From: Planctomycetota bacterium
Lineage (GTDB): Bacteria > Planctomycetota > Brocadiia > Brocadiales > Brocadiaceae
Assembly (NCBI GenBank): GCA_016873165.1
Contig: VGXV01000054.1
Coordinates: 1 to 21,078 of the forward strand
Direction: 5' to 3'
DNA length: 21,078 bases
A program made the position numbers and the translations under genes. Shown piece after piece: positions 2,104-19,009 of the stretch. Below the pieces are notes generated by a model. It did no database searches. It saw only the letters and a list, made by a program, of their open reading frames with translations, and was not told the DNA's origin. How positions within the stretch are numbered: the first letter of the stretch is position 1; each line of letters opens with the position of its first letter.

Positions 2104-3345
2104 TCAGGAATATTTTTTTAATAAAAGCACGGAATGCGACCCCCCGACGCTATGCCCGTTTATTAATATCACATTCATACTGGCATATCTCGCAACGTTA
2201 GGAACATAATCAAGATCGCAACACGGATCAGGCTCATCCAAATTAATTGTCGGTGGAATTATTCCGTTTTTCAGACTCAAACACCCTGCCACCGCCTGAA
2301 AACCGCCGCCGGCGGCAAAAGACTGGCCTGTCATAGACTTTATCGAACTGACCGGTATACGATATGCGTAATTCCCAAAAAAAACCTTAAACGCATTGGT
2401 TTCCGCAATATCATAACCTGGAATCGCATTGCCATGGGCACAAATATAATCTATTTCTTCTTTATATACTTTTCCCTTATTTAATGCCTGTTCCATCGCC
2501 GTAATCAAGGCATTTCCACTTACGTCCGATTGCACGATCTCCTGCGCCTCGCTTGATGATGCATATGATATTACCTCTGCGTAAATATCCGCTCCCCGGT
2601 TCAACGCATGATCCAGTTCCTCCATTACCAGCGTTGCTCCGCCTTCGCTCAATACCATGCCGTCGCGATCTTTATCATACGGTCTTGAAGCCTTTTCCGG
2701 CTCACTGTTTCTTTTTGAAAGGATACCCAGAGAATTTAATGCCGACATAGGAAACGGGAAAATAGGGGCATCGGAACACCCTGCCACTGCAATATCGATC
2801 TCTCCCTGCCGGATCATCCGGAAACCCCAATTGACAACATCAAGCCCCGTGATACAGCCCGAAGATAATGTAGAATTCGGACCCGTAATTTTCAATTCCG
2901 AGCAAATGTAGCCCGCTGCCACGTGAGGTGTGAGTTCCGGGGCTGTAAGCCTGCTTACGGCTTTTAATCCGCCATCCAAAAATCTTTTATATTGCCTCTC
3001 GTATATTTCGTTCTCCGCTCCTATTGTGGTGCCAAAACACACACCACATCGGTCTCTGTTTTCCGCTCCCAAATCTATACCGGAATCCTGCACCGCCATC
3101 TTCGCCGTCGCTACGCCAAAATGGGTAAACCGCGCGCTTCTTTTCACATATTTTTCCGCTAAATATTTGCACGGATCAAAATTTTTTACCTCACCGGCAA
3201 TGTGTGTATGAAGAAAAGACGGATCAAATGCGGCAATACGCTTAATACCCGATCTTCCGTTCGCCAAAGCATCCCAGTATGCCTTTTTTCCGTTGCCGTT
3301 AGGCGCCAATATTCCCAGTCCTGTAACAACAACACGTCTTTCCAT
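2104..3345 (-). CDS. Beta-ketoacyl-ACP synthase, FabF/FabB (KAS I/II) family, divergent paralog
   Basis: 413-aa ORF. It shows RVVVTGLGILAPNG at the N-terminus, the active-site Cys in LSSGCITGLD, the first catalytic His in ICAHGNAIPGYD, and a KSMTG motif. The C-terminus reads PPTINLDEPDPCCDLDYVPN, like FabF PPTINLDNPDEGCDLDFVP. The second catalytic His is Gln (see findings). Confidence 0.9.
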   Translation of the reverse strand: MERRVVVTGLGILAPNGNGKKAYWDALANGRSGIKRIAAFDPSFLHTHIAGEVKNFDPCKYLAEKYVKRSARFTHFGVATAKMAVQDSGIDLGAENRDRCGVCFGTTIGAENEIYERQYKRFLDGGLKAVSRLTAPELTPHVAAGYICSELKITGPNSTLSSGCITGLDVVNWGFRMIRQGEIDIAVAGCSDAPIFPFPMSALNSLGILSKRNSEPEKASRPYDKDRDGMVLSEGGATLVMEELDHALNRGADIYAEVISYASSSEAQEIVQSDVSGNALITAMEQALNKGKVYKEEIDYICAHGNAIPGYDIAETNAFKVFFGNYAYRIPVSSIKSMTGQSFAAGGGFQAVAGCLSLKNGIIPPTINLDEPDPCCDLDYVPNVARYASMNVILINGHSVGGSHSVLLLKKYS

Positions 3346-3429
3346 CTTGCACTTTAAATACTACCATTAGGTTTTTATGAAACGTTATACTTAAATTTAT
3401 TGTAACTCTTCAGCGTAAATGCGACACGG

Positions 3430-3605
3430 CTCTTTCCCAAGTTCCGGCTTGGGAACGCACGTGCCCGGGAAGCTTCTGCTTCTCATAACAGGAAGCAAAG
3501 CTTCCTTCACAATTGCGTTCCAAAGCCAGAGTTTTGGAACGAAAAGCCCCTTCGACTCCGCTCAGGGTGACATGCTTTTTCATATTACCATGCTGAGCGA
3601 AGATT
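3430..3605. repeat. Cluster of four consecutive palindromic stem-loops (REP-like intergenic element)
   Basis: Hairpins paired by hand. (1) 3434-3455: ttcccaag/cttgggaa, 8 bp. (2) 3468-3505: ggaagcttctgcttc/gaagcaaagcttcc, 14 bp with one bulge. (3) 3517-3540: gttccaaa/tttggaac, 8 bp. (4) 3550-3602: cgctcag...catg/catg...ctgagcg. They fill the gap between the radical SAM stop (3613) and the KAS start (3345). Confidence 0.7.
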
Positions 3606-3612
3606 TATTTGA

Positions 3613-5397
3613 CTATACAATAAAATTCTTCCTTGCTAAATATTTGCTGTAGTCATTTATTTTCCGATATGATTCTTCCAAAAATGTGTAATTTGTGCTC
3701 AATAACGCCATGTCACTTTTTATTTTAAACTCCTCAAGGCCTTTCTTACCCAAAAAACCCGCACTTCTCGCGGCAAGACAATGTTCATCCGAGACATTTA
3801 CCGTATACCCCATTTCCCTCACCTTTTTCTCCAGTAATCCCGTCATTTTAAGCATATCCAGAAATTTTATTCCGTTTAAAGATATATTGAGTTCCGGCCA
3901 CGTGCTCGGGTCTTTTGTCAGTTCATACTCATAGCGCAAAAGCGTCTGAAGATAATCTGCAGGCAATTCAAATCCATATTTGCCATGCTCCAGATGCCAC
4001 ATCGTTCCCGGCAGCGGCGCTCCGGGCGTAATAAGAACGGAATCAGGCATACAATTTTCATTTTTTAGTCTCTGCAGGAAAAATAAATTTTCCTCCAATA
4101 CTTTTTCATGAGTTATCCCGTTATCGGATGGCAACGGGCATGGATAAATAAAACTTACACCCACATCCAGGTGTTTCCCGGTATTATACGACGCCTGTTT
4201 CAATGCCTTTATTGTATAATATATATCTTCAACAGAACTCCCTTTTCCCATTACCTGCGAAAGAATATGATCATTTGCCGCTTCTGCCCCGAGAAAAACG
4301 GCTTTTAACCCGGATTGCATCACGAGTTCGTAATCTGCCACTAATGCATCCCATTTTTCTTTTGCCCTATCTTCCGCACGAACAAACATTGAATATTCTA
4401 TTTTTACGCCTTCCTTGATCAATGCGTTAGCGATTTTTTTGCTCAAGGAAACCGGTGTTGTGGACCCTGCAAATCGAAACAGGCCAATATCCATCTCCCT
4501 GATCGTATGTTTTATCTCATCCAGAATTTTCACAATATCCCCGGACTGATATTTCCCTGTAATTTTCGGATGCGTGCAAAAACTGCACTTTCCGTAATAG
4601 CAGCCTGAGGACTCTGTTATTACGGCAATATCCACCTTTCCATCCTCCTTTTCATACAGGGGAAAGTCCTTTAATCTTAACGGAATCCTTTTAACCGGAG
4701 ATTCCTTTACCTCGTTCACATCTCGGTAAATCAGATTACATATTTTCCCCTCACGAGCAAGTTCCGTTATTTTATTAATCACACCGGTTTTTTTATACCC
4801 CTGTGAATACATCTCCCTTACTATATGAATAAGCTTTACAAGAGTTTCTTCTCCTTCGACATCAATGCAAAAATCAAAAGGACTTTTCTCCAGTGTGCTC
4901 ATTTTAAACTGATTCACCTGCGGACCGCCTGCAATCACGAGCGTTTCAGGACTTATCTCATTTACTCTTCTTGTTAATTCCTCAGAATACAAAAATCTAT
5001 CCCCCAGCCATGTTTTGATCCCCAGAACCTTTACCTTGTGACAACGTACTCTTTCCGCAATCTCCTCAATATATGCTTCCATCTTCCTTTTCAGAATGCC
5101 GGAAAGTTCATTTTGAAGATTATTCCATTCCCGCACAAAAGGCGTTATTTCCTCTTTGCTTTTTCCGCCAAAAATAATTTCACACAATTCAGACAACCGT
5201 TGCGAAAGCTTATTTGCGGTAAATGACGTATAAAAATTAATTTTTGCCGGATCCTCGATAATAAAGTCAAATCCTTCGTTTTTGCATGCTCGTGCCAGAA
5301 CCCCTATGCCATTTTCCTTGAAACAGTCGCTCACAGAATAGGCTTTCCCCATAAATGAATTCCATAAGAGAAGATCCTTGCTTTTAAAATCAGTCAT
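3613..5397 (-). CDS. Radical SAM protein with an N-terminal B12-binding-like domain (class B-like)
   Basis: 594-aa ORF with RBS GGAGA 7 nt upstream of the ATG. The N-terminal Rossmann-like region contains LVIAGGPQVN. The Cys cluster is ITESSGCYYGKCSFCTHP (C266, C271, C274). Downstream radical SAM core-like strands include FRFAGSTTP and AVFLGAEAAND. There is no C-terminal SPASM-type Cys cluster. Confidence 0.8.
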   Translation of the reverse strand: MTDFKSKDLLLWNSFMGKAYSVSDCFKENGIGVLARACKNEGFDFIIEDPAKINFYTSFTANKLSQRLSELCEIIFGGKSKEEITPFVREWNNLQNELSGILKRKMEAYIEEIAERVRCHKVKVLGIKTWLGDRFLYSEELTRRVNEISPETLVIAGGPQVNQFKMSTLEKSPFDFCIDVEGEETLVKLIHIVREMYSQGYKKTGVINKITELAREGKICNLIYRDVNEVKESPVKRIPLRLKDFPLYEKEDGKVDIAVITESSGCYYGKCSFCTHPKITGKYQSGDIVKILDEIKHTIREMDIGLFRFAGSTTPVSLSKKIANALIKEGVKIEYSMFVRAEDRAKEKWDALVADYELVMQSGLKAVFLGAEAANDHILSQVMGKGSSVEDIYYTIKALKQASYNTGKHLDVGVSFIYPCPLPSDNGITHEKVLEENLFFLQRLKNENCMPDSVLITPGAPLPGTMWHLEHGKYGFELPADYLQTLLRYEYELTKDPSTWPELNISLNGIKFLDMLKMTGLLEKKVREMGYTVNVSDEHCLAARSAGFLGKKGLEEFKIKSDMALLSTNYTFLEESYRKINDYSKYLARKNFIV

Positions 5398-12367: not shown

Positions 12368-13483
12368 CTACCGATACTCAAGAATTATCGGCATTGTTTG
12401 CGAGAATACCGGTTCAATCAGATCCGTCTCAAAACTGTTGGTCAGAAGCACCCAGATGAGTCCGCTATCCGGAAAATAATAGTATTCGCCCTGAAACCCG
12501 CTCGATGCACCGCTATGGGTCCACGTTTCGCCGAAGTCGGTCATCACCCGTTCGACGCCGAGTCCGTAATCGCTCTCCGCTCCGAATCGCGTCATCTTGT
12601 CCAGGGACTCCTCCGATAACACCGTCTGGTCAATAAAGAGAGCGAGGAGGAAGCGGGCAACGTCGGACGGAGTCGAAATGATTCCACCGTCACCGAGACC
12701 AAGCCCGTCATTGTAGTCCGTGACGTCCTTCAGCCTCTTGTTGTCGTCATATTCGTATCCATGCGTCGACAGGGAGCGCGTACTTGCCTCGAATTCAACG
12801 AAGGTATCCGAGAGTTCGAGCGGATCGAATAACAATTCCCGCATAAGCGTCGATAACCGCTTGTGCATCACGCGACTCAATATCTTCCCCATCATCGTGT
12901 AGTTGGTATTCGAGTAAAAAAACTTCTGTCCCGGGCTGAATTTCGGGGAGAGGTCATATACCATCTCGATCGTCTCCTTGGCTGTCCAGCGATGGTGCGG
13001 ATTCGATGAGTACACCTCATCAAAACCTTCGGTATCAAGGTAATCAGGAATCCCGCTCTTCATCGCAAGCAGGTGACGGACGGTTACCTTTTTCCCGTTA
13101 GGCACCCGGTCGAAATCCACCACGTCTTTCAGATAACGTCTTGCCCGCGACTTGAGGCGTAAGGACGAGTTTTCCTCCAGCATGAGGCTGACGGCCGCGA
13201 TGAACGTCTTCGTCATACTCGCTATTCGGAAATTATCCGACGTGGTCAGCGATTGTCCACCCTTGCCCCGCTTATTCTTTCCCGATGCGAGCGAGACTAT
13301 CTCGTGGTTCGGCAGGATCACGCATAAGGACGCGCCGGGCGTAACCGTCGAGTCGGACACCTTCTCATCGAGAACCTTTTGCAACCGGCCCGTAAGCTCG
13401 TCCACCGTATCGGCATGGGCCGGCAACGGGACGCACACGAACATCGCCAGGAACAGGATCAAGGCCATGCGCATAAATATCAT
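12368..13483 (-). CDS. Secreted serine hydrolase, beta-lactamase/transpeptidase-like (class C / esterase EstB-like family)
   Basis: Motifs: SxxK (ASMTKTF), YxN (FYSNTNY) and a KTG-like HSG (WTHSGASSG). I prefer ATG 13483, giving MIFMRMALILFLAMFVCVPLPAHA|D, a signal peptide, with GGAGA 2 nt upstream. The track start at 13537 lies inside the MITE. The gene is clearly GC-richer than its surroundings. Confidence 0.85.
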   Translation of the reverse strand: MIFMRMALILFLAMFVCVPLPAHADTVDELTGRLQKVLDEKVSDSTVTPGASLCVILPNHEIVSLASGKNKRGKGGQSLTTSDNFRIASMTKTFIAAVSLMLEENSSLRLKSRARRYLKDVVDFDRVPNGKKVTVRHLLAMKSGIPDYLDTEGFDEVYSSNPHHRWTAKETIEMVYDLSPKFSPGQKFFYSNTNYTMMGKILSRVMHKRLSTLMRELLFDPLELSDTFVEFEASTRSLSTHGYEYDDNKRLKDVTDYNDGLGLGDGGIISTPSDVARFLLALFIDQTVLSEESLDKMTRFGAESDYGLGVERVMTDFGETWTHSGASSGFQGEYYYFPDSGLIWVLLTNSFETDLIEPVFSQTMPIILEYR

Positions 13484-13493
13484 CGTCTCCAAC

Positions 13494-13633
13494 GGGAGCA
13501 TTCCCAATTTTTTGTAAATCAAAATAAAGCCGACCATAAAGGATCGGCGCTACCATGCAATATGTGTCGTAGCGCGGGTGGTTTATCCCCCGCATAATAC
13601 CTCCACATTTTACAAAAAATTGGGAATGCTCCC
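13494..13633. mobile_element. 140-bp MITE (non-autonomous derivative of the IS at 20869)
   Basis: It has 25-bp terminal inverted repeats: GGGAGCATTCCCAATTTTTTGTAAA at 13494-13518 and its reverse complement at 13609-13633. A 9-bp direct duplication GTCTCCAAC flanks it at 13485-13493 and 13634-13642. The first 60 bp are identical to 20869-20928. Internal hairpins include gcgctac...gtagcgc. Confidence 0.8.
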
Positions 13634-14063
13634 GTCTCCAACCTCATTGCATCGTGATGAAATTAATGTGTTAAGAAATAAAAATTTGACATTTTCAACA
13701 AAAATATTTTTCACAAAGTCTGTATGCCGCTTTATATAAGGCTTTGGAATACGTTTTCCCATTGTCCTACTCTTGTCATTTTCTCTGCGCCCTGCAGTGA
13801 ACGGTTTACCCTTCCGACTCGTACGGGCACTGTTATTTTGTCCTTCTTCCCGATCTTGTTTTCCGTTCCTTCCAGATGAGATGATAGGAAATGGTTTTTT
13901 TAGCTTGAGGCGATATTAACCTAAAAATGAAAAAGATGTCAAGTTTTTAAATTCATTCAGCTAAATTGAATATTAAAAAAGGGTGCAGATGGAAAGAATG
14001 GCGCGAAACGATAGGAGTATTATCTGTGGATGGGTAATTTGCAGCAAATTCCTATTTTTTATG

Positions 14064-14290
14064 TGGAATACCCGATTAATAAAGCACTGAAAGCGCGAGG
14101 GGGATATTCTCTTCACGAAACTCCCGTCCCCAGCGATACTTTCAAACCATCGGTTCCGCAAGGGAAGCAGGCATGGGATTCATTCCGGCGCAGGGTATGG
14201 TCGGGGAAAATATTTAAACAAAGTTGTGGATGTTGCTTACAGCGCGATATTTTACAAGGACAGAACAATAAACAATTCTGTTGGAGATGC
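14064..14290 (+). pseudogene. Degenerate duplicate of the 3' end of the FadL-family gene
   Basis: It aligns by eye with 11653-11878 at roughly 90% identity (about 20 mismatches). One extra base near 14160 breaks the frame. Compare INKALKARGGYSLHETPVPSDTFKPSVPQG with INAALKARGGYSFHETPVPSDTFEPSVPQG. Similarity ends abruptly at GGAGATGC, 18 nt before the tusA-like stop. Confidence 0.8.
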
Positions 14291-14308
14291 GGTTTTCTTT
14301 GGAGCTTC

Positions 14309-14539
14309 TTATTTCACTTTTTTCACAAATACGTGAATTTCTCCTTCTTCCTCCTTTATCTCTAAAAGCTCATTTCCCGTACTGTTGCACCACGAGACAA
14401 TGTCCTTTTTTATCCCTTCATCCGTAGCTATTATCTCAAGTATTTTGCCGGGTTTTATTTCGTTCATCTTGCCGGCAGTTTTAAAAATAGGCATTGGGCA
14501 CATAAGCCCGTAACAATCCAACGTTTCATCTGCTTTCAT
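14309..14539 (-). CDS. tusA: TusA/SirA-family sulfur carrier protein
   Basis: The CPxP motif sits in LDCYGLMCPMPIFKT, and the length is typical of the family. ATG 14539 gives 76 aa (MKADETLDC...). The ORF track starts at an upstream TTG, 14566. Confidence 0.85.
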   Translation of the reverse strand: MKADETLDCYGLMCPMPIFKTAGKMNEIKPGKILEIIATDEGIKKDIVSWCNSTGNELLEIKEEEGEIHVFVKKVK

Positions 14540-14585
14540 TGGTTTTGACCCTATCTTTACCTTCAATTAAAGTTCATCATTACAG

Positions 14586-15026
14586 TTAAGGATGAAAATC
14601 CGGTTCGTGATGATGATCATCATGCGAATGTGTTTTCTTTTTCTCAAGACCTTTTCCCGTTGTCTTCTTTAAATAATCGTCAATTGCACCCTCAATTGCT
14701 TCTTCCGCCAATACGGAGCAATGCATCTTCGCGGGCGGCAAACCGCCTAATGCCTCCGCAACCGCCTTGTTGGTAAGCTGTAATGCTTCATCAAGAGTTT
14801 TTCCTATAATCATTTCCGTAGAAATACTGCTTGTGGCAATCGCCGCGCCACAGCCAAATGTCTTGAATTTTGCATCTACAATGACATTATCTTTTACTTT
14901 AATCGACATTTTCATAATATCGCCGCATGCCGGATTTCCCACCTCTGCAACACCATCTGCCTCAGTAATTTCTCCCACATTACGCGGATTTGCAAAATGA
15001 TCCATTACCTTTGCGCTATACTGCAT
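14586..15026 (-). CDS. iscU: Fe-S cluster scaffold IscU/NifU N-terminal-type, with a His-rich C-terminal tail
   Basis: Motifs: NPACGD, FKTFGCGAAIA and LPPAKMHCSVLAEEA (all three Cys ligands, plus Asp and His). The tail is KKKTHSHDDHHHEPDFHP. Confidence 0.95.
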   Translation of the reverse strand: MQYSAKVMDHFANPRNVGEITEADGVAEVGNPACGDIMKMSIKVKDNVIVDAKFKTFGCGAAIATSSISTEMIIGKTLDEALQLTNKAVAEALGGLPPAKMHCSVLAEEAIEGAIDDYLKKTTGKGLEKKKTHSHDDHHHEPDFHP

Positions 15027-15041
15027 AGAAAACTCCTTATT

Positions 15042-15596
15042 TCAAAATATATCTTTTAATTCTATTTTTAACCCTTTTAAAGAAGGCGACTCAAGGGTAT
15101 CGGTTTTAGAATACGTAGCATGAAGCGGATAAATACACTCCTTCAGGATATGAACTTCTATTTCTTTCTCTTCCGGAATCACTATCCAGTATTCCCTTAC
15201 GCCGAATCTTGCATAAAGCCTCTTCTTCTGCACCATATCCCGGTAAACACTGTATTCTGAGAGAATTTCTATCACAATATCCGGCGCACCCTGTATATTT
15301 TTTTGACCGATAATGTTCAGTCTGTTTTTTGAGATAAAAAAGATATCCGGATGGACTACATTTTCTTCGTCAAAATATACATCGCACGGAGCATAAAGTG
15401 TTTTTCCAAGGTCATTTCTTAAAACAAAATCTTTTAACCGGCTATAAAGTTCCGACGAGACTAATTGCTGTTTAGGGACAGGGGATGGAGTCATGAGCAG
15501 TTCTCCGTTAATGAGTTCATACCACTTGTCATCTGGAATTTTTAAATAATCTTCGTATGTATACTTTTTCTTTTCTACGATAAGAGTCGATGTCAT
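15042..15596 (-). CDS. Uma2-family (DUF820) putative endonuclease
   Basis: 184 aa. Matching segments: YELINGELLMTPSP, VVHPDIFFIS, GAPDIVIEILSEYSVYRDMVQKKRLYARFGVREYWIV. These fit the Uma2 pattern ELI-GE...PD...GAPDLVVEILSPS...D...K...YA..GV.EYWIVDP. Confidence 0.85.
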   Translation of the reverse strand: MTSTLIVEKKKYTYEDYLKIPDDKWYELINGELLMTPSPVPKQQLVSSELYSRLKDFVLRNDLGKTLYAPCDVYFDEENVVHPDIFFISKNRLNIIGQKNIQGAPDIVIEILSEYSVYRDMVQKKRLYARFGVREYWIVIPEEKEIEVHILKECIYPLHATYSKTDTLESPSLKGLKIELKDIF

Positions 15597-15607
15597 ACCG
15601 CACCTCG

Positions 15608-16780
15608 TTAAAAATTATTTTTCCGATTATATAAAGGCGACATTTGTCGGAGGCGTTCGACAATGGGCGGCAATTTTTCCAGGACGTATTTCACGTCGTT
15701 CTCGGAATTATCAATCCCCATACTGAAAAGCACGGTTCCCTGAGCAATCGCCGCATCAACACCTGTGGCCATTATAACATGTGATGCCTTCAACGAACGT
15801 GAGGTGCATGCAGACCCGCTTGATATTGCAATCCCCTGCATATCCAAAAACAACAGCACAGACTCGCCTTCAATAAATTCGATACAGATGCTCAGATGTC
15901 CCGGAAGCTTGTTTGCCGGATGCCCATTTACATATATATTGCTTATTTTCTTCAACAGTCCTTCGCACAACATATCTCTTAGTTTCCGTACATGTTCCAG
16001 CCGTTGCGGCATTTCAGTTTTTGCCAATTCGGCAGCCTTTCCCATGCCCACAATTCCAATAACATTCTCGGTTCCGGCCCTTCTTCCTCCCTCCTGAACC
16101 CCGCCTTCTATAAAAGGCATAATCCTTATCCCCTCTCTCACATAAAGAGCCCCGATTCCTGTCGGGCCGTAGAACTGGTTCGCAGACATGCTTAACACGT
16201 CAACAGGCATCGTTGAAACATCTATTGGAACATTCCCCGCCGCAGCTACGGCATCCGTATGAAAAATAATATCCTTTGCCTTAACAATTTCCGAAATTTC
16301 TCTGATAGGTTCAATAGTTCCGATTTCATTGTTGGCAAACATTATTGATGCCAATATCGTTGTCGGTTTAATTGCGCTTCTTACGTCATCAGGGTGCACC
16401 AATCCGTATTTATCAACGGGCAAATAAGTTATTTCGTATCCTGATTTCTCTAGTGATTTCAAAGGATTGAGAATGGAAAAATGTTCTATCTCTGAGGTAA
16501 TGATATGGTTGCCCTTCTTTTTATTCGCGGCAGAGATTCCTTTTATCGCAAAATTGTTAGCCTCCGTGCCGCTTGCTGTAAAAATAATTTCATTCGCTTT
16601 TGCATTGATAAGGCTTGCCACATTCTCCCGCGCAATTCTTATCGCATCATTTGTAATTTTTCCAAATTGATGCAGGTTTGAAGGATTGCCAAACCCTTCT
16701 TTTAAAAATGGAATAATTGCCTCTCTCACGTGCGGATGCATTGGGGTGCCTGCCGCATTATCCATATAAAGTTTTTCCAT
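15608..16780 (-). CDS. nifS: NifS/IscS-like class V aminotransferase-fold protein (cysteine desulfurase homolog lacking the PLP lysine)
   Basis: 390 aa. Motifs: YMDNAAGTP, FTASGTEANN, SEIEHFS, FHTDAV, GGRRAGTENV and the active-site loop SSGSACTS. The usual S-x-H-K-x-x-GP-x-G motif reads SANQFYGPTG (see findings). Confidence 0.9.
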   Translation of the reverse strand: MEKLYMDNAAGTPMHPHVREAIIPFLKEGFGNPSNLHQFGKITNDAIRIARENVASLINAKANEIIFTASGTEANNFAIKGISAANKKKGNHIITSEIEHFSILNPLKSLEKSGYEITYLPVDKYGLVHPDDVRSAIKPTTILASIMFANNEIGTIEPIREISEIVKAKDIIFHTDAVAAAGNVPIDVSTMPVDVLSMSANQFYGPTGIGALYVREGIRIMPFIEGGVQEGGRRAGTENVIGIVGMGKAAELAKTEMPQRLEHVRKLRDMLCEGLLKKISNIYVNGHPANKLPGHLSICIEFIEGESVLLFLDMQGIAISSGSACTSRSLKASHVIMATGVDAAIAQGTVLFSMGIDNSENDVKYVLEKLPPIVERLRQMSPLYNRKNNF

Positions 16781-16801: not shown

Positions 16802-19009
16802 CTAGGTTACCTTTTCCAATTTTGCATACGCCAGCATGAGATTCCTGGTTCCGCCAATGTTAAAATTGACCTTTACGCCGGCCTTCTCATTGCATCCATA
16901 TGATTCCAAAACCCTTCCGATGCCAAAAACAGGGTGCCTTACCACTTCACCGCTCGAAAAATTCTGAGGTTTTTCTTGGGGAAAAGCGTTTCTTTCCAAA
17001 TATTCATTATACTCTTCTCTTAAATCTCCTTCAAAACCTGTTTCATTTTTCCATGAATTATTTTTATCATAAAATTCATATGAATCTTTGTTTTCCGTTT
17101 TATCCCGCCAATCCAAACACCCTGCATGTATTTCATTTAAAAAGCGGGATGGAACACACGGTATAAGCTGTCCATACCTCATCCTCCTTTTCGTGTGGGT
17201 AAGAAAAAGCTCTTTCATTGCCCGGGTTATTCCCACATAGCACAACCGTCTTTCTTCTTCAATTTCTTCATCAGAAATCCTGGATTCCGAATGCGGCAAT
17301 AAACCTTCCTCCATGCCTGAAATGAAAACAACGGGAAATTCCAATCCTTTCGCAGTATGCAATGTCATAAGCGTCACGGCTTCCGCCTTGTCATCAACCG
17401 TATCCAGATCGGAAATTAACGCCACTTCCTCTAAAAACCCCTGCAAAGAACCTTCAGGATGCTTGATATCATACTCATGCGCCGCATTAACTAATTCTTC
17501 AATATTAGCAATCCGGTCTTCACACTCTTTTTCTTCCGACTTTCTGAGAAACGCCACATACCCCGTTTTATCAATCACTCGTATAATGATTTTTTCCACA
17601 GAAGTTTGAGGATCGTGCCGTAAAAGCATAATAAGTTCATAAAATTTTTTTATTGCCGCAACAGTCTTGCCGGTAATGCCCGGTACCATCTCTACCGCGC
17701 TAATAGCATTGAGGAGGCTTATGTTCTGAACAGCAGCCCATTCCTTTAGTCTTGTTATACTGGTGTTTCCAATGCCCCGCGCCGGCGTATTAATAGTGCG
17801 TTCTAATGCCACCTCATCGGACGGGTTTACGCATAATCTGAGATACGCCAGTATATCTTTTATTTCTTTTCGCCGGTAAAATTCAACTCCGCCAACAATT
17901 ACATACGGAATCCCGGAATTTCTAAGGGCAATTTCCAGCACGCGGGATTGCGCATTGGTGCGGTAAAACACCGCCACATCCGTATATTTCATTCCCTTTC
18001 CATGCATTCTCCTGATAACTTCCGCAATTTCTTCCGCTTCAGCGTGCTCACTCTCGCAATGTATTACTTTTACTTTTTCACCATGATCATTTTCCGTCCA
18101 GATTTCTTTCTGTTTTCGGTATTTGTTTTTTTGAATAACGCTTGAAGCCGCCAGCAGGATATTCTTTGTTGAACGGTAATTTTGCTCCAGCAACACTACT
18201 TTTGCATCAGGATAATCTTTTTCAAAATCCATTATGTTCCTTAAATCAGCGCCACGCCACCCGTAAATCGACTGGTCAGGGTCACCGGTGACACAAATAT
18301 TTCTGTATTTCTGCGCAAGCAAACGCGAAATAGCGTACTGCACATAATTTGTATCCTGATATTCATCGATAAGAATATATTTAAATTTTTCCTGATACGA
18401 CGTCAAAATATCCGGACATGTCCTGAAAAGTTCTACCGTCTTTATGAGAAGATCATCAAAATCCAGGGCATTATCTGTTTTCAGAAGACCTTCGTACTTC
18501 TTATAAATTTTTGCCACCATTTGGTTATAAACACCGGAAGCAGTTGCCGCGAATCGTTCGGCATCAATAAGTTTATTTTTCGCATTACTTATGGAACTTA
18601 TAATGCTCCGCGGTTTCCATTGGGCGGTATCGATCTGTAAATCGCCCATAATGGATTTTATCCTGCTTAATTGATCCACCGTATCATAAATGCTGAAATC
18701 CTTTGAATATCCAAGCCTTTCTATATCTTTTCGTAATATCCTGGAGCACATCTTGTGGAATGTGGAAACCCACATTCCTTTATGAGAAGAAAACAATTTT
18801 ACTCTCTCGCTCATTTCGTTTGCAGCTTTGTTTGTGAAGGTTATTGCCAGTATATTATACGGAGATACGCCTTCAGACATTAAATAGCCGATACGTCGTG
18901 TAATTACGCGGGTTTTCCCGCTGCCTGCGCCCGCAACTATTAAAAGAGGCCCGTTGACATGGGTAATCGCTTCACGCTGCTTTTCGGTAATATTTTCCAA
19001 TAGTGTCAT
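16802..19009 (-). CDS. pcrA: ATP-dependent DNA helicase, UvrD/PcrA/Rep family
   Basis: 735 aa. Motifs: AGAGSGKT, FTNKAANEM, DEYQDTN, QNYRST, TLHTAKGLEFPVVF, YVGITRA. It has the C-terminal Tudor-like GEVVRHPVFGIGRVL. Confidence 0.95.
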   Translation of the reverse strand: MTLLENITEKQREAITHVNGPLLIVAGAGSGKTRVITRRIGYLMSEGVSPYNILAITFTNKAANEMSERVKLFSSHKGMWVSTFHKMCSRILRKDIERLGYSKDFSIYDTVDQLSRIKSIMGDLQIDTAQWKPRSIISSISNAKNKLIDAERFAATASGVYNQMVAKIYKKYEGLLKTDNALDFDDLLIKTVELFRTCPDILTSYQEKFKYILIDEYQDTNYVQYAISRLLAQKYRNICVTGDPDQSIYGWRGADLRNIMDFEKDYPDAKVVLLEQNYRSTKNILLAASSVIQKNKYRKQKEIWTENDHGEKVKVIHCESEHAEAEEIAEVIRRMHGKGMKYTDVAVFYRTNAQSRVLEIALRNSGIPYVIVGGVEFYRRKEIKDILAYLRLCVNPSDEVALERTINTPARGIGNTSITRLKEWAAVQNISLLNAISAVEMVPGITGKTVAAIKKFYELIMLLRHDPQTSVEKIIIRVIDKTGYVAFLRKSEEKECEDRIANIEELVNAAHEYDIKHPEGSLQGFLEEVALISDLDTVDDKAEAVTLMTLHTAKGLEFPVVFISGMEEGLLPHSESRISDEEIEEERRLCYVGITRAMKELFLTHTKRRMRYGQLIPCVPSRFLNEIHAGCLDWRDKTENKDSYEFYDKNNSWKNETGFEGDLREEYNEYLERNAFPQEKPQNFSSGEVVRHPVFGIGRVLESYGCNEKAGVKVNFNIGGTRNLMLAYAKLEKVT

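Follow-up and report, generated by a model that had tools for sequence, protein, structure and literature searches.

The stretch analyzed here, hereafter the window, comprises positions 1 to 21,078 of contig VGXV01000054.1 from a Planctomycetota bacterium of the family Brocadiaceae. Its minus strand carries a gene for an IscS/NifS-type protein that resembles cysteine desulfurases but lacks the lysine that forms the Schiff base with pyridoxal phosphate (PLP), followed by genes for a Uma2-family protein, an IscU scaffold and the sulfur carrier TusA. We use IscS* as a working name for the Lys-less protein. The gene and its informative codons are:

15608..16780, minus strand: IscS*, an intact 390-aa open reading frame with the type I, class V aminotransferase fold (Pfam PF00266, 4.4e-81 over residues 5-365)
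16180-16178 (aac) and 16177-16175 (cag), minus strand: N201 and Q202, occupying the positions of Escherichia coli IscS H205 and K206, the Schiff-base lysine
16244..16246, minus strand: A179, within FHTDAVAAAG, occupying the E. coli Q183 position
15728..15730, minus strand: L351, in GTVLFSMG (E. coli SSIRFSLG), occupying the R354 position
15806..15808, minus strand: C325, in the retained SSGSACTS loop, equivalent to E. coli C328 and Archaeoglobus fulgidus C321

Read on the minus strand, N201 and Q202 fall within VLSMSANQFYGPTGIGALYV. A preliminary description of this DNA had claimed that the S-x-H-K motif of desulfurases is replaced here by S-A-N-Q, and the codons at 16180-16175, aligned with E. 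coli H205 and K206, bear this out. As the E. coli reference we used a sequence identical to PDB 1P3W, aligned with IscS*, A. fulgidus IscS and the structure 9wep, which gave the following correspondences:

T72: T76 in E. coli, T70 in A. fulgidus
H100: H104 in E. coli, H98 in A. fulgidus
D176: D180 in E. coli, D173 in A. fulgidus
A179: Q183 in E. coli, A176 in A. fulgidus
S199: S203 in E. coli, S196 in A. fulgidus
N201: H205 in E. coli, N198 in A. fulgidus
Q202: K206 in E. coli, D199 in A. fulgidus
T237 (in GTENV): T243 in E. coli, S234 in A. fulgidus
C325: C328 in E. coli, C321 in A. fulgidus
L351: R354 in E. coli, L347 in A. fulgidus

The alignment agrees with the same description in two further respects: a second PLP contact is changed (A179 in FHTDAVAAAG aligns with Q183), and the persulfide-loop cysteine (C325), the GTENV motif (T237) and the histidine (H100) are retained. 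The replacement of R354 by L351 is an additional loss, which that description did not contain. In IscS structures, the Q183 position is that of the glutamine contacting O3' of PLP, and the R354 position is that of the arginine binding the substrate carboxylate. Because this arginine is also lost, the case for an inactive protein is stronger than it had been.

Of the features of a type I cysteine desulfurase IscS* has the fold and the loop cysteine; the lysine, Gln183 and Arg354 are missing, and its score lies below the equivalog cutoff. It reaches 518.1 bits with the NCBIfam NifS model TIGR03402 (cutoff 530.75), 416 with NF010611 (cutoff 548) and 402 with TIGR02006 (cutoff 643), and the only model it passes is the broad subfamily NF002806 (307.8 against a cutoff of 304). 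Public records nevertheless name its orthologs "cysteine desulfurase" or "IscS subfamily cysteine desulfurase" despite the missing lysine. Judged by its residues, the label EC 2.8.1.7 appears wrong for IscS* and its orthologs and should not be annotated, because the defining lysine is absent. AlphaFold2 models had too low a predicted local distance difference test score (pLDDT) for pocket analysis, both from the single sequence (pLDDT 35) and from an alignment of 46 anammox sequences (pLDDT 61.7 overall and less than 50 around the Cys loop).

The substitutions are strongly conserved. We searched 5.8 billion proteins and took the best 120 clusters, which are 73-100% identical to IscS*; those with a source name all come from Brocadiaceae, Kuenenia or unclassified Planctomycetes. 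None of these 120 homologs has a lysine at the K206 position. The residue pair could be read in 115 of them: one has S-Q and the other 114 have N-Q. The homologs also conserve FH(T)DA(V)A-A and SSGSACTS. In the 46-sequence anammox alignment (mean column identity 81%), N201, Q202, L351, C325, D176, H100, T72 and T237 show no variation and S199 shows almost none. The ratio of nonsynonymous to synonymous substitution rates (dN/dS) of the IscS* gene is 0.047-0.060 between Brocadia copies; between these and the window gene, synonymous sites are saturated. Purifying selection on the gene is thus strong, and the invariant residues together with a dN/dS of about 0.05 indicate that IscS* is functional and constrained. 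The preliminary description had judged a sequencing error unlikely and had proposed an alignment of orthologs as a check, and both N-Q and the change from Gln to Ala are indeed kept in the orthologs.

To place these changes among more distant relatives, we searched 1.84 billion cluster representatives (50% identity) with HMMER; of the 150 best relatives, 21 lack the lysine. We compared 130 Lys-bearing sequences with 29 Lys-less ones, the latter being the 21 representatives, IscS*, A. fulgidus IscS and six anammox proteins:

Q183 position: Gln in 126/130 Lys-bearing sequences; Ala in 22/29 and Gln in 1/29 Lys-less sequences
R354 position: Arg in 129/130 Lys-bearing and 3/29 Lys-less sequences
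H205 position: His in 119/130 Lys-bearing sequences; Asn in 16/29 Lys-less sequences
C328 position: Cys in 128/130 Lys-bearing and 29/29 Lys-less sequences
D180 position: Asp in 130/130 Lys-bearing and 29/29 Lys-less sequences

Loss of the lysine is accompanied by loss of Gln183 and Arg354, while the loop cysteine stays. The closest Lys-bearing relative of IscS*, P0122 (57% identity; L171, 491..1675), retains His-Lys and lacks the equivalents of Q183, R354 and T243; its Cys loop, ASASTCTMM, is unusual. The P0122 gene lies in the order Rrf2-type regulator-IscS-IscU with no TusA, and it may be an intermediate toward the loss of activity.

Among solved structures the closest to IscS* is 9wep (1e-129), followed by A. 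fulgidus IscS as the second-best match (4eb5, 3e-114) and by E. coli IscS (1p3w, 9e-94). A. fulgidus IscS (IscS2; PDB 4EB5, 4EB7, 4HVK and, for the D199K variant, 4R5F) has the same type I fold at 46% identity. It shares with IscS* the Asn in place of His, the replaced lysine, the changes of Q183 to Ala and of R354 to Leu, the loop cysteine and a neighboring IscU gene; in the PDB alignment its motifs read S-S-N-D, HIDATAS and LLL. The two differ in the residue at the lysine position (Gln in IscS*, Asp in A. fulgidus), in the host (an anammox Planctomycetota bacterium versus an archaeon) and in gene order, which is IscS*-Uma2-IscU-TusA in the anammox bacteria and TusA-DsrE-IscS*-IscU in the A. 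fulgidus type. The archaeal protein is said, from the 2013 work of Yamanaka and colleagues, to carry no PLP. It is without desulfurase activity because its lysine is replaced (PMC7585200, citing Marinoni 2012, Yamanaka 2013 and Pagnier 2014), and its crystal structure, an (IscS-IscU)2 complex, has a cysteine ligand given to the [2Fe-2S] cluster on IscU (PMC7585200, PMC13066941). The precedent invoked in the preliminary description is thus real, with N198-D199, A176 and L347 as its residues, no desulfurase activity and a Cys ligand to the IscU cluster (PMC7585200). Methanosarcina acetivorans IscS1 also lacks the lysine (PMC7585200). By the residues they have in common, IscS* is a bacterial member of the Lys-less kind of IscS first described in A. 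fulgidus.

Canonical NifS and IscS proteins (E. coli 1P3W; the clostridial-type NifS-NifU pairs, TIGR03402/TIGR03419) have the same fold and length as IscS* and share with it the SSGSAC loop, GTEN, the C-terminal RLRxxSPL and an adjacent NifU_N-type scaffold gene. Unlike them, IscS* is without K206, H205, Q183 and R354, and its operon includes TusA, which we found in 0/65 canonical loci. The closest relatives outside the anammox bacteria are the Lys-less IscS proteins of Dehalococcoidia, other Chloroflexota and Aminicenantes (L011-L023; 55-61% identity), which have in common with IscS* the pair N-Q (or S-Q, N-M), FHTDAVA, an adjacent IscU and an operon TusA. Their loci differ in having the order IscS*-IscU-Zn ribbon-DsrE2-TusA with no Uma2, and their IscU reads LPKNKxHCSNLGAQAL versus LPPAKMHCSVLAEEAI in the window IscU, which resembles the Firmicutes type.

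The genes around IscS* in the window are:

15042..15596, minus strand: Uma2-family (PF05685) gene, Pfam 7.5e-32, 11 nt after IscS* and before IscU
14586..15026, minus strand: IscU/NifU_N scaffold of 146 aa (PF01592, 1.4e-50; TIGR03419, 205.9 bits against a cutoff of 187.9)
14309..14566, minus strand: TusA sulfur carrier with a CPMP cysteine motif (PF01206, 8.3e-25)
16802..19009, minus strand: UvrD/PcrA helicase (Pfam), ending 21 nt upstream of IscS*

IscU and TusA had been described as lying just downstream of IscS*. They are on the same strand and supported by Pfam, but they do not directly adjoin IscS*, as the Uma2-family gene intervenes; IscU starts 15 nt after Uma2 and 582 nt downstream of IscS*. 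The window IscU carries the canonical Cys/Asp/His-Cys ligand motifs. From the alignment with TusA proteins of other Lys-less operons, the true start of TusA is probably the ATG at 14539 (MKADETLDC...). Within the 21-kb window, Pfam and profile searches revealed no second desulfurase, and profile searches revealed no HscBA, Fdx or A-type carrier genes.

The order IscS*-Uma2-IscU-TusA recurs in other anammox genomes. Upstream of IscS* in the window, a TehB-like methyltransferase gene accompanies UvrD/PcrA, and the whole series methyltransferase-UvrD-IscS*-Uma2-IscU-TusA is repeated in a Kuenenia metagenome-assembled genome (L090). In Brocadia, IscS*-Uma2-IscU-TusA lies on a 1.39-Mb contig (L001), the one bearing P0028 of the Brocadia-type orthologue group, and no UvrD is present there. 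The Uma2-family gene (dN/dS 0.095) sits likewise between IscS* and IscU in Brocadia L001 (9200..9751) and Kuenenia L090 (6186..6740). The UvrD/PcrA neighbor, which is also present in L089 and L090, is probably functionally unrelated to IscS*.

Two features of the operon genes may be mentioned separately. The Uma2-family gene, annotated "putative restriction endonuclease" and also matching the PADLOC candidate family PDC-S03, is conserved as part of the operon, and it has no evident function in iron-sulfur (Fe-S) assembly. The window IscU ends in a His-rich C-terminal tail, THSHDDHHHEPDFHP (14586..14630, minus strand). Brocadia L001 has a similar tail, AHAHDEHHEH, and some IscU proteins of Firmicutes carry shorter versions. 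The window tail may be a metal-binding extension.

The association with TusA extends well beyond the anammox bacteria. We scanned one genome per GTDB species, obtaining 80 loci that were sorted by motif and searched with purpose-built hidden Markov models. Fifteen are Lys-less, two of them from Brocadia and 13 from Dehalococcoidia, other Chloroflexota or Aminicenantes (55-61% identity, mostly N-Q); the other 65 are Lys-bearing, mostly Firmicutes NifS-NifU pairs. The two groups compare as follows:

IscU adjacent: 13/15 Lys-less loci; 62/65 Lys-bearing loci
TusA within 2 kb on the same strand: 11/15 Lys-less loci; 0/65 Lys-bearing loci (Fisher p = 1.3e-10, not corrected for phylogeny)

In Dehalococcoidia the operon reads IscS*-IscU-double Zn ribbon-DsrE2-TusA, with DsrE2 identified by PF13686 (1.7e-49). 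The contexts of other Lys-less cluster representatives vary. In BMS3Abin14, a metagenome-assembled genome whose phylum is uncertain, the order is IscS*-DsrE2-TusA and IscU is absent; a cluster with named members from Latescibacteria, Zixibacteria and Gemmatimonadota has ThiS-MoaE-IscS*-TusA-Mrp-ThiI; a cluster with a Nitrospirae-labelled member has Rrf2-IscS*-IscU-TusA-DsrE; and one A. fulgidus-like representative has TusA-IscS*. Two Lys-less representatives had no TusA or DsrE2 link in their contexts. As a separate observation, the double zinc-ribbon gene that separates IscU from DsrE2 in Dehalococcoidia encodes about 62 aa (CPYC...CxxC...CPxCG), and in Aminicenantes the zinc ribbon is joined to the C-terminus of IscU. 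The coordinates of these zinc-ribbon genes and IscU fusions are:

L012: 7581..7772
L013: 7576..7761
L019: 5717..6304
L020: 7179..7778

A metagenome scan queried with A. fulgidus IscS gave a second set of 80 loci (L091-L170), all with S-[SA]-N-D. Flanking sequence sufficed in 59 of them to judge the upstream side: 49 have TusA no more than 1 kb upstream, and in 33 a DsrE-like gene stands between TusA and IscS*. IscU follows directly downstream in 64/69. The usual order in this S-S-N-D family is TusA-(DsrE-like)-IscS*-IscU, as in L091 (3381..5623), where TusA and a DsrE-like gene immediately precede the gene for a relative at 78% identity. This conserved order suggests that TusA and DsrE are partners in the characterized A. 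fulgidus system as well, for which we have met no discussion of them. Since two sequence groups show the link with different gene orders, functional coupling fits better than inherited synteny. The tight linkage of Lys-less IscS to TusA, and often to DsrE2, appears to be new: we found no report of it, nor of Lys-less IscS in anammox bacteria or Dehalococcoidia, in the full-text literature searched, which included neither the Tanabe/Dahl TusA review nor Garcia et al. 2022. Lys-less homologs go unmentioned in a 2021 review of bacterial cysteine desulfurases, and a published anammox core-genome study does not mention Fe-S assembly.

We suggest, with a probability of roughly 0.7, that IscS* is an IscU partner incapable of PLP-dependent desulfuration, working in a minimal Fe-S module that would draw its sulfur from sulfide or from a TusA relay. 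From sequence and gene context we infer that IscS* would not bind PLP, would have no desulfurase activity and would form a complex with IscU, and the same evidence underlies the source and direction of sulfur flow that we propose. IscS* would dock IscU as described for A. fulgidus IscS, and C325 would serve as a cluster ligand, as a point of persulfide hand-over, or as both. The sulfur would not come from catalysis by IscS* itself; it would be supplied as free sulfide, or by a persulfide relay through the co-operonic TusA, joined by DsrE2 in the related lineages. Such a relay would be the reverse of the transfer from IscS to TusA in E. coli. IscS* is predicted to be unable to generate persulfide, and any sulfur flow would therefore have to begin elsewhere. 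The linkage to TusA and DsrE2 suggests that a persulfide relay or sulfide substitutes for cysteine as the sulfur source. The preference of the preliminary description for a PLP-free scaffold partner over an active desulfurase is thus supported as far as sequence evidence can carry it.

Known sulfur relays offer partial parallels to this module. In the E. coli IscS-TusA relay (PDB 3LVJ) and the TusA/DsrE2 relays of sulfur oxidizers, a CPxP TusA is partnered with an IscS-type protein, as here, and a DsrE2-type protein adjoins TusA in the Lys-less operons related to that of the window. In E. coli, however, sulfur passes to TusA from an active IscS, whereas IscS* is predicted to be unable to form the persulfide itself. 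TusA and IscU occupy adjacent, partly overlapping sites on E. coli IscS (PMC11446229). The minimal Fe-S system MIS (MisS/MisU) has been described as sulfide-capable (PMC13066941), and like the window it consists of an IscS-like and IscU-like pair without chaperones or carrier proteins. The definition of MIS does not include TusA, which the window operon has, and the likeness rests on gene content rather than on MisS phylogeny.

Several observations weigh against the IscU-partner reading. The Brocadia copies in L009, L010 and L089 have neither IscU nor TusA nearby, and DsrE2 is absent from the anammox operon. The statistics for TusA carry no phylogenetic correction, and their 65 Lys-bearing controls come largely from Firmicutes NifS-NifU pairs. 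The IscS* system might be fed by an active desulfurase, such as SufS, encoded elsewhere in the genome. Finally, the former PLP contacts T72, H100, D176 and T237 are invariant, S199 is nearly so, and N201-Q202 are likewise invariant; the former cofactor pocket is therefore still constrained, and by its residues it might hold PLP non-covalently or another ligand. The constraint could reflect a structural role or a bound ligand. It would also fit a protein that is still an active desulfurase, binding PLP non-covalently or through another lysine (e.g., the invariant K331 in the Cys loop) and using a non-canonical mechanism, since N201-Q202 are fixed and not drifting. We consider this improbable, because the equivalents of K206, H205, Q183 and R354 are lost together, the lysine is present in 130/130 relatives that nearly all retain Gln and Arg, and A. 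fulgidus IscS with the same pattern is inactive (PMC7585200). The changes are also no artifact of sequencing or assembly, nor signs of a decaying pseudogene, a reading of negligible probability that we ruled out: the same residues occur in 120 independent clusters from many assemblies, dN/dS is about 0.05, and the frame is intact.

IscS* might chiefly serve thio-cofactor pathways that depend on TusA, namely those for tRNA thiolation, molybdopterin and thiamine, instead of Fe-S assembly. It would be their docking hub, with sulfane sulfur passing via C325 to or from TusA. The ThiS-MoaE-IscS*-TusA-Mrp-ThiI locus of the Latescibacteria type, the IscU-less IscS*-DsrE2-TusA of BMS3Abin14 and the gene for MnmE, a tRNA modification GTPase, next after IscS* in Candidatus Brocadia pituitae (AP021856.1; L009, 6001..8619) all speak for it, as does E. 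coli TusA, which receives sulfur from IscS for the molybdenum cofactor and tRNA pathways (PMC11446229). We nevertheless regard it as an unlikely main role, given the adjacent IscU in 13/15 Lys-less genome loci, in 64/69 A. fulgidus-like loci and in the window operon; the two roles are compatible, not mutually exclusive. Inactive enzyme paralogs are frequently regulators, and IscS* could be a decoy that limits sulfur flow by competing for IscU or TusA against an active desulfurase. IscU and TusA do compete for IscS in E. coli (PMC11446229), but the window encodes no active desulfurase, the conserved Cys325 would be unnecessary in such a role, and an operon shared with the scaffold across several phyla better fits a stoichiometric partner, so that a decoy seems decidedly improbable. 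We gave very little credence to, and rejected, a sulfur donor for DNA phosphorothioation of the DndA/SspA type, or a defense island formed with Uma2 and the UvrD-like helicase. PADLOC models for DndA (1e-142) and SspA (3e-141) match IscS*, Uma2 matches PDC-S03 and UvrD matches GajB models, but these matches are generic, arising with any IscS-like or UvrD-like protein. Both DndA and SspA need the PLP lysine, no dndBCDE or sspBCD genes were found in the window, and the partners present instead are IscU and TusA.

A wider reading joins Lys-less IscS to IscU and TusA, in many cases along with DsrE2, in a widespread, cysteine-independent sulfur pathway of anaerobes for Fe-S clusters and thio-cofactors. 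We put this forward tentatively, as possible though doubtful. Sulfane sulfur derived from sulfide, polysulfide or thiosulfate would pass to DsrE2/TusA, then to the loop cysteine and on to IscU. The pathway would range over Brocadiales, Dehalococcoidia, Aminicenantes, the Latescibacterota/Zixibacteria/Gemmatimonadota cluster, the Nitrospirae-labelled cluster and relatives of Archaeoglobus. Bootstrapped neighbor-joining trees, computed after masking of the active-site columns, recover the anammox clade with a bootstrap of 100. The anammox, Chloroflexota and Aminicenantes Lys-less genes form a 25-leaf, entirely Lys-less clade (bootstrap 33), and the A. fulgidus group is placed apart from the anammox clade, with about 0 support at the deep nodes. 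Because the deep nodes lack support, the trees are compatible with a single loss of the lysine as well as with repeated losses.

IscS* bears on where strict anaerobes obtain the sulfur of their Fe-S clusters. Anammox bacteria rely very heavily on Fe-S and heme proteins, and here an IscS-type gene that is predicted to be catalytically dead is strongly conserved among them. Such putatively dead IscS genes accompany TusA and DsrE2 in several phyla and thereby mark a candidate route of sulfur entry other than cysteine. In Methanococcus maripaludis cysteine has been ruled out as the sulfur source, and the minimal systems MIS and SMS are scarcely characterized (PMC13066941). Metabolic reconstructions of anammox bacteria and Dehalococcoidia may credit Lys-less IscS with an activity that it lacks, since annotation pipelines label these proteins "cysteine desulfurase".

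Some further observations concern Brocadia and the rest of the window. The 391-aa Brocadia IscS* in L089 (5001..6176) keeps the upstream methyltransferase-UvrD synteny and has no IscU or TusA; possible explanations are a second Lys-less copy in Brocadia or a splitting of the operon. Between TusA and a FadL-like gene, the window has a beta-lactamase-family (PF00144) gene at 12368..13537 (minus strand) and about 770 nt of apparently non-coding sequence at 13538..14308, both missing from the otherwise syntenic Kuenenia L090. At 2104..5397 (minus strand), a FabF-like beta-ketoacyl synthase gene adjoins one for a B12-binding radical SAM protein. Beside the pair lie genes for a sigma-54 response regulator and for a histidine kinase of the hybrid GAF/PAS type. 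This pairing presumably resembles the genes proposed for ladderane-lipid biosynthesis in anammox bacteria.

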